IMG/VR virus record: IMGVR_UViG_2880372215_000003
Source of the DNA: a virus
Taxonomy: Duplodnaviria > Heunggongvirae > Uroviricota > Caudoviricetes
Direction: 5' to 3' (one strand)
DNA: 52,839 nucleotides
Shown here one piece after another: positions 15,001-18,000 of this stretch. Within the stretch, counting starts at the first letter, position 1. Each line of letters begins with the position of its first letter. Made by a program: the position numbers.

Positions 15001-18000
15001 GAAGAGCGCAAGGTGCTGGAAGAGATTGCCGGTGTTCTGGGTCTTCGTCTGGAGAATCACCTGTGACGGTAAAACTGCGCCTGACTGTGGCTGCACTCCT
15101 GCTGTTTCTGGTGGTGATGGTGGATTTCACCAGCAGAATCATGTCGGTGCTGGCGGATGGGGTGCTGGTCTGCGGCATTGTGGTATTGCTGTGGCCGGTG
15201 ATAAAAAGAAACAGCCTGCATAATGCTTGATTTTTTTGTTTGCTGTTTATTAAAAACACTTCTGCATGGTGAATCCCCTGTGCGGAGGGGCGATCAGCAA
15301 GAAGGTATATGGGATAATCGCGGATTCAGGTGCTGGTACTGAATTCACCGGGAGGCACCCGGCACCATGCTTTGCCACAAAAGTGTTATTTCTGTTTTTC
15401 TCAAACTATCATCGTTATCCCTTTATTTCCGGCTGCGCATGGCGCGGCCTTTTTTTACGACCAGCCACTGGCAGATGGTCATCCTGTGATTTGATTCCGG
15501 TTCCGGCTTTTTAACTCTGTTCCTGTACACGGGAGAAATTCGATGTCGATTAAACATTATGATGTTGTCAGGGCGGCGTCGCCGTCAGACCTTGCGGAAA
15601 AGCTGACACACAAACTGAAAGAGGGCTGGCAGCCGTTTGGTAGTCCGGTGGCCATAACCCCTTATACCCTGATGCAGGCGATTACAGCAGAAGGTGATGT
15701 GGTGGTCAGTGGTGCAACTGAGCCGGATTGGTACTACGTCATCGTACTGGCCGGGCAGTCCAATGCCATGGCTTACGGTGAAGGGCTTCCGCTGCCGGAT
15801 TCATACGATGCTCCGGATCCGCGCATTAAACAGCTGGCGCGCCGCAGTACAGTGACGCCGGGTGGGGCTGCCTGCAGATATAACGATATTATTCCGGCCG
15901 ACCACTGCCTGCATGATGTGCAGGATATGAGTACGCTGAATCATCCGAAGGCAGACCTGAGCAAAGGGCAGTACGGCTGTGTCGGCCAGGGGTTACATAT
16001 TGCCAAAAAACTGCTCCCGTATATCCCGAATAACGCGGGGATCCTGCTGGTACCATGCTGTCGTGGTGGTTCGGCATTTACCCAGGGCGCGGAGGGGACA
16101 TTCAGCGAGTCCACGGGGGCCAGCCAGGATTCGGCACGCTGGGGGGTGGGCAAGCCGTTATATCAGGATCTGATTTCCCGCACAAAAGCGGCATTGCAGA
16201 AAAATCCCAAAAACGTTCTGCTGGCCGTCTGCTGGATGCAGGGAGAGTTTGACATGAGCGCCGCCACCCACGCACAGCAACCTGCGCTGTTTACAGCCAT
16301 GCTGGCACAGTTTCGTGCTGACCTCTCCGTGTTTAACGCGCAGTGCCATGGTGGCAGTGCTGCAGATGTGCCGTGGATTTGTGGTGACACGACGTATTAC
16401 TGGAAAAATACATACGCTACCCAGTACGACACCGTGTACGGCGGGTATAAAAACAGGGAGAGTGAGGGCGTTTATTTTGTGCCCTTCATGACAGACGGTA
16501 ACGGCGTCAATACCGCCACTAACGCGCCGGCAGAAGATCCGGATATTCCGGCATCAGGATATTACGGTGCGGCATCGAGAACGAATGGAAACCAGGTATC
16601 ATCAAACCGCCCGACACATTTCAGTTCATGGGCGCGCAGGAGCATTATTCCGGATCGTCTGGCAACCGCTATTCTGAACGCAGCCGGGCGCACCTCAGCC
16701 TTCATCAGTGGTAAGGCACCGGAAATCAAACCCTCGCCCGGCGGCAACACGCCATCGGGTCCGTCTGCAGATACGTCCGTTCGCACAATCTCCCTGCTGC
16801 CGGCAGCCGGAGAGGCTGCTGCGCAGGGCTGGAGCATTAAGGATGGCGGAATTCAGTTGTCAGATGGTGTATTTAAGATCACCAGGCAGAGCAATAAAAC
16901 CTGGTCCCTGACGCATCCGGTGGATGACGCAATTACCCTGCTGACACAGGGCGGCAGACTGACCTGTAAGTTCCGCCTGTCAGGCGCGCTGACCAACAAT
17001 CAGTTCGGGCTGGGGATTTATCTGTATACGGATGCTCCCGTTCCTGATGGTGTGGCGATGACGGGTACCGGTAATCCGTTCCTGATGTCGTACTTTACTC
17101 AGACCACTGACGGCAGAGTGAATCTGATGCATCACAGGAAAGCCGGAAACACGAAGCTGGGGGAGTTCGGCGATTACGGTAACGACTGGCAGACGCTGGA
17201 GCTGGTGTTCACCGCCGGCAGTGCCACGGTTACTCCGAAACTGAATGGAGTGGCTGGCCCGGCATTCCAGGTTATAAAAGACAGTCTGACACTGGGACTG
17301 AATGCGCTGACGCTGACGGATGTTACAAAAAATGCAGCGTATGGCGTTGAGATAGAAAGTCTGGTGCTGGAGATAAATGCACCGGCAGCATAATAAAAAA
17401 AGAGCCAGCGACTGACCTGAAAGAAGACGCTGGCTAAAAGGCCTTATATGTTTGTAGAGACTTATTTTTCACAGACAGCAATGATGCCTGTCAATATATT
17501 ATCAATATGCGGATTGTTTCAGTTACAGATGCTTTATTAAGGAAAAAAACAGCCAGCACTGACTTTCGGTGGAGAGGTGCTGGCTCAGAAGGATAGTTGG
17601 ATTTCACATGATACTTATGCCTGGCGGTATATTTTCTGACAGACAGTGACGGGTGTTGTCAAGATATTGTGTCATTTATAACCTGAATCAGGGGGTGGCC
17701 GGAATGTTATCTGGCATTTTTAGCAGAGCCTGAATGCCATAATCACGGCTCCCGGCGTTGGCCGTCAGTGGGTGACACTGGCGGCTTTTTTGTTTTTCTT
17801 TACTTTCATTTTCTGTCGGCGGTGACGGAGACATACATCAGATGGAAAAAATCACAACAGGTGTGTCATACACCACGTCAGCGGTGGGGACGGGATACTG
17901 GTTACTGCAGCTGCTGGACAAAGTCTCTCCGTCCCAGTGGGTGGCGATAGGCGTGCTGGGGAGTCTGCTGTTTGGGCTGCTGACATATCTGACGAACCTG

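Follow-up and report, generated by a model that had tools for sequence, protein, structure and literature searches.

In the 52,839-nucleotide stretch analyzed here (the window; virus record IMGVR_UViG_2880372215_000003), a 448-bp spacer separates a sialate O-acetylesterase gene from the first lysis gene within the late operon of a lambdoid prophage. The esterase, labeled "SASA family carbohydrate esterase" in RefSeq, is preceded on the same strand by genes for RusA and antiterminator Q, three tRNA genes, a TerB-family gene, and the STnc100 RNA. The spacer holds two repeated units, numbered from the esterase side, and a terminator on the strand of the late operon. The features referred to below are as follows.

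13304-13999, plus strand: antiterminator Q (PF06323), upstream of the plus-strand terminator and on the same strand.
15543-17393, plus strand: NanS-p-type sialate O-acetylesterase of 616 aa, from the ORF list, with Pfam domains PF08410, PF03629, and PF20350 (DUF1737, SASA, and DUF6645).
17361-17371, plus strand: CTGGTGCTGGA at the 3' end of the esterase gene, a direct repeat that contains GGUGCUGG, an 8-nt complement of the proposed PasA seed.
17394-17460, minus strand: unit 1, an EcOnc52-type module, with a terminator stem at 17403-17435 and a U7 tail running from 17401 to 17395.
17489-17494, minus strand: a perfect TTGACA, candidate -35 element for unit 1, read from the sequence and paralogous to the hexamer of unit 2.
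17543-17627, minus strand: unit 2, a PasA-family small RNA of ~85 nt, with a terminator stem at 17551-17585 and a U7 tail running from 17549 to 17543.
17586-17630, minus strand: the variable 5' body of PasA, delimited in alignments of 6 and of 12 unique spacers.
17631-17690, no strand assigned: a near-invariant block, presumed to be the promoter region, with 0-1 variable columns per 20 nt among 12 unique spacers.
17692-17753, plus strand: a stem, GGG.GGCCGG...CCGGCTCCC, around a small hairpin; the fold of 17686-17800 has -44.8 kcal/mol and z = -2.75.
17760-17797, plus strand: an intrinsic terminator, stem 17760-17770/17776-17786 followed by T6GT5, also annotated in phage 434.
17842-18048, plus strand: a class II (P21-type) holin of 68 aa, the first lysis gene (Pfam PF04971, E = 7e-33).

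Prophage Sp12 of E. coli O157:H7 Sakai matches the window in all tested stretches: the spacer itself and 600 bp near 20.5-21 kb are identical in both. The gene order places the interval inside the late operon of a lambdoid prophage. A 100% identical spacer was found in many O157:H7 genomes; among 5426 complete E. coli genomes, 698 contain the spacer, at a median of 5 copies each. RefSeq carries no annotation inside the spacer, Rfam has no PasA model, and an Rfam scan of 17380-17850 gave no match at gathering thresholds, at E <= 1, or at E <= 10. With neither resource annotating them, genome scans will keep rediscovering the small-RNA genes described here. A 48-aa minus-strand ORF (17688-17834) was ruled out as coding, since indels in relatives break its frame. 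Phage 434 has the spacer at 95.8% identity, and its curated GenBank record, as independent evidence, marks terminators at these places, two of them on the minus strand and one on the plus strand.

Two related hairpins, AGCCAGC...GCTGGCT, lie at 17403-17435 and 17551-17585. On the plus strand an A7 run stands ahead of each (17395 and 17543) and no T run follows either, so that on the minus strand both are terminators ending in U7; the original prediction overlooked these A7 runs and took two of its three structures on the wrong strand. A search of the 52.8-kb window for AGCCAGC-N8-26-GCTGGCT-N-TTTTT gave two occurrences, each on the minus strand, where shuffles predict 0. Folding of the interval gave stable structures for both minus-strand hairpins and for the plus-strand terminator. 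The minus-strand terminators have free energies of -16.0 kcal/mol (z = -6.8) for unit 1 and -16.3 kcal/mol (z = -3.7) for unit 2, and for neither unit was any shuffle as stable as the minus-strand hairpin (0/200 for unit 2). Across 17000-18200 there are 5 terminator-like sites versus 0.9 +/- 0.9 in shuffles, which bears out the original prediction that the region holds more structure than a simple intergenic spacer needs.

The same prediction described two imperfect direct repeats of 80-90 bp, each with an AT-rich segment containing a GACAG...CTGTC palindrome. The repeats are real as paralogous hairpin units, but their period is 148 bp, measured from A7 run to A7 run. The two units reach a local alignment score of 32, versus 15.6 +/- 2.3 in shuffles (maximum, 25), and an end-to-end alignment with indels gives 102/181 identity; TTGACA, CTGTCTGT, GAAAA, ATAAGT, the hairpin, and the T7 run are common to both. 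Judged by these alignments, the units are true paralogues, diverged tandem modules whose similarity extends past the hairpins. The palindrome fared less well: it is exact in unit 1 (17474/17488) and absent from unit 2, and inverted repeats of five nucleotides are no more common than chance predicts (5, versus 4.1 +/- 2.5), so its reading as a protein-binding site was dropped.

The locus is already known, as PasA/EcOnc51 and EcOnc52 have been published. In enteropathogenic E. coli (EPEC) E2348/69, PasA lies on the minus strand between esterase E2348C_0688 and holin E2348C_0689 in a "> < >" gene arrangement, with a major form of 85 nt and a minor form of 236 nt (Pearl Mizrahi et al. 2021, PMC8550237, table S6). 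In that study, PasA was abundant, was validated by northern blotting and RIL-seq, and depended on Hfq for its stability; it had 41 RIL-seq partners and was RNA2 in about 94-100% of its chimeras, and EcOnc51 and EcOnc52 were named as its EHEC homologues (PMC8550237). Both homologues are Hfq-CRAC peaks of O157:H7 Sakai with a Rho-independent terminator flagged nearby (Tree et al. 2014, PMC4104026, table S2). They were reported without northern validation (PMC4104026), and their CRAC reads are not assignable to one prophage because the copies are repeated in the genome.

EcOnc51 (Sakai Sp12) is 100% identical to minus-strand positions 17599 to 17523 of the window, and EcOnc52 (Sakai Sp4) is 100% identical to positions 17460 to 17383. 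What had been reported as two separate peaks in Sp12 and Sp4 is found in the window as tandem paralogues 148 bp apart in one spacer. The 85-nt PasA of E2348/69 matches minus-strand positions 17616 to 17543 at 68/74 nucleotides. The terminator and the proposed seed, GCCAGCACCU at 17584 to 17575, are the same in PasA and unit 2, whereas the first ~40 nt differ at about 14 positions. The PasA northern probe, GCCAGCACTGACTTTCGGTGGAGAG, matches plus-strand positions 17552-17576 exactly. Seed homology, a location between esterase and holin that is antisense to both, and a hairpin followed by U7 place unit 2 in the PasA family; with PasA and PasC of E2348/69 it shares position, strand, terminator, seed, the 236-nt read-through architecture, and a U-tailed, Hfq-type 3' end.

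A preprint by Zhu, Shabalina and Storz (2026, bioRxiv 10.64898/2026.05.13.724894) locates pasA or pasC in the gap that separates a gene for sialic acid esterase from the operon for holin and lysozyme; PasD/STnc100 precedes the esterase, and TerB and RusA are nearby. The gene arrangement of the window shows this same synteny. Unit 2 is identical to EcOnc51 and is probably the "PasA-2" variant of the preprint. Its authors place the seed in the terminator stem, which they term unusual, and state from the distances between full pasA hits that the pasA copies do not come from tandem duplication. Despite that statement, the downstream EcOnc52 is, by sequence comparison, a clear paralogue of the pasA module.

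The 236-nt minor isoform of PasA aligns to minus-strand positions 17616 to 17392, and its 3' end is made by the unit 1 terminator. By this alignment, the longer form is the PasA transcript that passes its own terminator and ends at that of unit 1. In the EPEC RIL-seq data, the 3' end of unit 1 forms chimeras as RNA2, with escD. Unit 1 may also be transcribed on its own, as a candidate independent RNA; its TTGACA is kept in Sakai Sp4, in which all sequence upstream of about 17512 has given way to IS629.

It was originally suggested that the structures may regulate lysis gene expression, and a plus-strand reading takes this further: the repeated hairpins and the terminator would be cis-acting structures of the late transcript that control the holin and lysis genes. 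Plus-strand RNA does fold both hairpins (-15.6 and -20.8 kcal/mol), they lie in the path of the late transcript, and the plus-strand terminator lies 45 nt upstream of the holin start codon. An Hfq-associated plus-strand RNA from this spacer, forming chimeras with PasB, is also found in EPEC. However, the placement of the A7 runs, with no T run after either hairpin on that strand, marks them as minus-strand terminators, the published minus-strand RNAs end exactly at both hairpins, and PasC-type loci and 933W-type phages, which lack one or both units, keep the same holin. We therefore consider cis regulation by the repeated hairpins improbable. The Hfq peaks of PMC4104026 (table S2) include none on the late-operon strand just upstream of the holin and so give no support to a plus-strand small RNA ending at 17797. 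What survives of the suggestion is that the terminator plausibly gates the lysis genes; the repeated hairpins are 3' ends of minus-strand, trans-acting small RNAs. Rather than a riboregulator of lysis, the structures upstream of the holin are small-RNA genes, through which prophages are tied to the regulation of host and virulence functions in EHEC and EPEC.

Variation within the family is concentrated away from the hairpin. The terminator is the sole structured part of PasA, as the whole-molecule fold is no more stable than shuffles (z = -0.7). Among 12 distinct related spacers, nearly all substitutions fall within 17586-17630, and this 5' body takes the form of three mosaic haplotypes (PasA, window type, and PasC type). 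Among the loci examined, 22 PasA-type and 18 window-type 5' regions are all followed by one unchanging terminator, and terminator and seed are invariant in 42 copies. A check for covariation in PasA by blastn against phages gave 29 records (H-19B, Stx1a phages, 434, YYZ-2008, and 2B8) with no divergent homologues, and a scan of IMG/VR with the hairpin pattern returned mostly unrelated chance terminators, the true members being the same few haplotypes.

This conservation bears on a second alternative, in which the hairpins only insulate the esterase gene, hairpin 1 acting in both directions, and the small RNAs are non-functional, spurious antisense by-products. Hairpin 1 does begin 10 nt past the esterase stop codon, the promoters are weak or undetected, and no PasA phenotype has been published. 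But the plus side of the hairpins has no U tract, so they are not bidirectional, and an abundant, Hfq-stabilized RNA with its many RIL-seq partners and its consistent RNA2 position does not look like a by-product. The invariant terminator and seed, set beside a 5' body that varies in discrete haplotypes, and the near-invariance of 17631-17690 also count against it, and we regard mere insulation as very improbable.

Upstream of PasA, the minus strand has a perfect TTGACA at 17662 to 17657. From this hexamer and its counterpart in unit 1 we infer the positions of both presumed promoters. A promoter scan found no consensus sigma-70 promoter for either module, and in a manual search the best -10 candidates of both units were weak and lay 19-20 nt from the perfect -35 hexamers; for unit 1 the candidate is AAAAAT at 17469-17464, with a 19-nt spacer. 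A sigma-E-like promoter was considered, judged by eye to be too weak, and dropped. The mature 5' end of PasA may come from processing of a longer transcript (Zhu et al., bioRxiv 10.64898/2026.05.13.724894).

PasC loci have a single unit and a spacer of about 295 nt, versus about 450 nt for two-unit loci. Their body is PasA-like, and they resemble unit 1 in their stem and flanks, TTTTAGCCAGCGTC...CGCTGGCT, after which comes the esterase stop region. In these alignments PasC appears to combine the two modules in one hybrid unit, which could be explained by unequal recombination between the two hairpins or by an ancestral state with a single unit.

The 3' end of the esterase gene is the point on which the minus-strand small RNAs converge, and it may also be one of their targets. 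Esterase genes E2348C_0688 and E2348C_1246 are listed as PasA RIL-seq targets with the sites CUGAUGCUGGA and CUGGUGCUGGA, respectively (PMC8550237, table S7), and the window carries the same site at 17361-17371. Induction of Stx2a strains with mitomycin C raises nanS-p transcript levels by 1-2.4 logs (10- to 250-fold; PMC10462455), which fits late read-through transcription across such regions.

The hairpin-plus-T-run terminator that the original prediction placed at 17760-17790 was confirmed, with its T tract extending to 17797. Its 11-bp stem has 7 G-C pairs and closes a 5-nt loop, and it folds at -20.6 kcal/mol (z = -4.6). When 26 distinct holin leaders were aligned, 94.3% of cells were paired and 6 of the 11 pairs had changes on both sides; 0/500 shuffles were as good, and slid controls gave 13-55% paired. 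We also assembled 148 loci around relatives of the holin gene, representing 54 non-redundant upstream types. Same-strand terminators were found in 13 and 13 of these types in the two 100-nt bins before the holin start, although some of them will be ordinary tR' terminators in phages without morons, against 3-7 (about 5) per 100-nt bin further upstream; the opposite strand had 0-2 in the proximal bins.

Comparison with 933W-like phages had been put forward as a check on the interval, and it separates the two parts of the spacer. In 933W-type Stx2a phages the PasA spacer is absent and a DUF826-type ORF lies between esterase and terminator, while a homologous terminator hairpin precedes S; in these and other holin leaders the hairpin stands at the same distance from the start codon. 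Because the hairpin is conserved with covariation before other P21-type holins, the terminator is, on comparative grounds, a selected part of the holin cassette and not of the PasA module. By analogy with lambdoid biology, it most likely insulates the lysis genes by blocking Q-independent transcription. Our literature search found no experimental study of a terminator upstream of S in Stx phages or of this terminator. Like Q-read-through terminators of the tR' type, it is strong, lies on the late-operon strand, follows Q and pR', and precedes the lysis genes; unlike tR', which follows pR' immediately, it comes 3.7 kb after Q, with the tRNA, TerB, and esterase morons in between.

Taken together, these data favor a compact small-RNA locus that is inserted, in a lambdoid prophage, between an esterase "moron" gene and the lysis cassette, and we assign a probability of about 0.88 to the whole explanation by tandem small-RNA modules and a holin-leader terminator. 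The locus consists of two diverged minus-strand modules, each with a TTGACA hexamer, a short body, and an intrinsic terminator made of a hairpin and U7. The promoter-proximal module encodes the Hfq-dependent PasA (EcOnc51 or the "PasA-2" variant) of about 85 nt, from 17627 to 17543, and the second, EcOnc52, ending at ~17394, catches read-through of the first terminator to give the 236-nt isoform. U-tailed terminators are the usual Hfq-binding 3' ends. These RNAs act in trans on core and virulence mRNAs, the adjoining esterase mRNA being among the listed targets. In the lysogen, the plus-strand terminator would stop rightward transcription not modified by Q ahead of the holin and endolysin genes. 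Possible sources of such transcription are moron promoters and the esterase mRNA, which lacks a plus-strand terminator of its own. On induction, Q-modified polymerase from pR' would read through it.

A more elaborate version is possible, although we hold it only tentatively and think it more doubtful than not. In it, the pasA locus is a two-gene tandem array, unit 1 (about 65 nt) is a third family member with its own promoter, PasC arose by unequal recombination between the terminator hairpins, the 5' body and not the seed sets the targets as in AgvB/AsxR, and the whole works as a lysogeny/lysis switch. If this were true, the late Q-antiterminated transcript, perfectly antisense to both RNAs, would titrate or degrade them on induction; the small RNAs would be active in the lysogen only, and the plus-strand terminator would silence the lysis genes until induction.

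AgvB and AsxR (Tree et al. 2014) are similar in being short, Hfq-bound prophage RNAs that are antisense to the late operon and adjoin morons. They share with PasA a conserved 3' end and a variable 5' end. AgvB, AsxR, and the "convergent sRNA pairs" at the pR' moron site differ in sitting upstream of the esterase, at the position of STnc100 in the window. The AgvB (RF02702) and AsxR (RF02703) covariance models, which cover a conserved 3' region of ~42 nt, had no match at E <= 1 across 13000-19000 and none at E <= 10 across 17380-17850. AgvB and AsxR are anti-sRNAs; we know of no sponge activity for PasA.

Relative to the published descriptions, the additions made here are that the two units are tandem paralogues, that PasC looks like a hybrid, that variation in PasA is concentrated in its 5' body, and that the terminator shows covariation and belongs to the holin cassette. 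They leave the overall picture unchanged and may be useful to researchers working on Pas RNAs. Between the PasA module and the terminator, the plus-strand stem at 17692-17753 is 96-100% conserved, according to BLAST identities among the spacer variants.

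In enteropathogenic Escherichia coli E2348/69, RIL-seq recovered a plus-strand RNA (743494-743512) that overlaps the 5' end of PasA, the small RNA encoded by unit 2 of the spacer on the minus strand (PMC8550237). This segment is the equivalent of window positions 17622-17640 (+). It occurred as the first RNA in chimeras with PasB and was represented by ~800 fragments under the non-activating condition (PMC8550237). Rightward transcripts that cross the spacer and are bound by Hfq therefore exist in uninduced cells.

Spacers homologous to that of the window are recurrent targets of insertion sequences (loci L003, L004, L007, and L008). 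In Sakai prophage Sp4 (L004), IS629 lies at the equivalent of ~17512; PasA is lost and unit 1, the EcOnc52-type module, is retained. In PP5 of E2348/69 (L003), ISEc13 is located immediately 3' of the plus-strand terminator that precedes the holin gene. Spacer fragments also adjoin IS elements on two ~94-kb plasmids: one (L008) carries unit 1 and the 3' end of the esterase gene next to an IS3-family element, and the other (L007) a fragment covering unit 2, flanked by IS3-family and IS110-family elements.

RNA features elsewhere in the prophage are as follows.
4223-4274, minus strand: DicF, 77 bits
11120-11294, plus strand: sok antitoxin RNA, 117 bits
14008-14092, plus strand: sub-threshold matches to the IsrK, IsrJ, and attenuator-leader models, directly downstream of Q
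15235-15456, plus strand: STnc100 (RF02076) match, 93 bits, upstream of the esterase gene
20838 to 20790, minus strand: stretch 100% identical to EcOnc10

The STnc100 match extends to a plus-strand terminator (~15430-15456), which can be aligned to that of PasD2 from EPEC; the RNA is probably the counterpart of the ~222-nt EcOnc04/05-type RNA of Sakai. The esterase gene is thus flanked on both sides by small-RNA genes. The matches downstream of Q probably represent a short pR'-tR' transcript, in the same position as StxS of Stx phages, and the presence of sok implies a hok/sok module. EcOnc10, which has no entry in Rfam, is among the strongest orphan Hfq-CRAC peaks in Sakai, where it maps to Sp12 (PMC4104026); in the window, the identical stretch lies downstream of Rz, where a minus-strand DUF3950 ORF (20804-21031) has its 3' end.

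Among the lysis genes, 933W-type holin leaders (ATGTACCAGATG) contain two in-frame starts, like those of holin/antiholin pairs, whereas the leader in the window (17818-17844, +; ATACATCAGATG) has only one, giving a 68-aa product. A frameshift appears to break the endolysin gene (18448-18980, +), leaving one ORF at 18448-18648 and another at 18645-18980, and the match of the second to the Phage_lysozyme profile covers profile positions 34-125 only; the prophage may therefore be lysis-defective.
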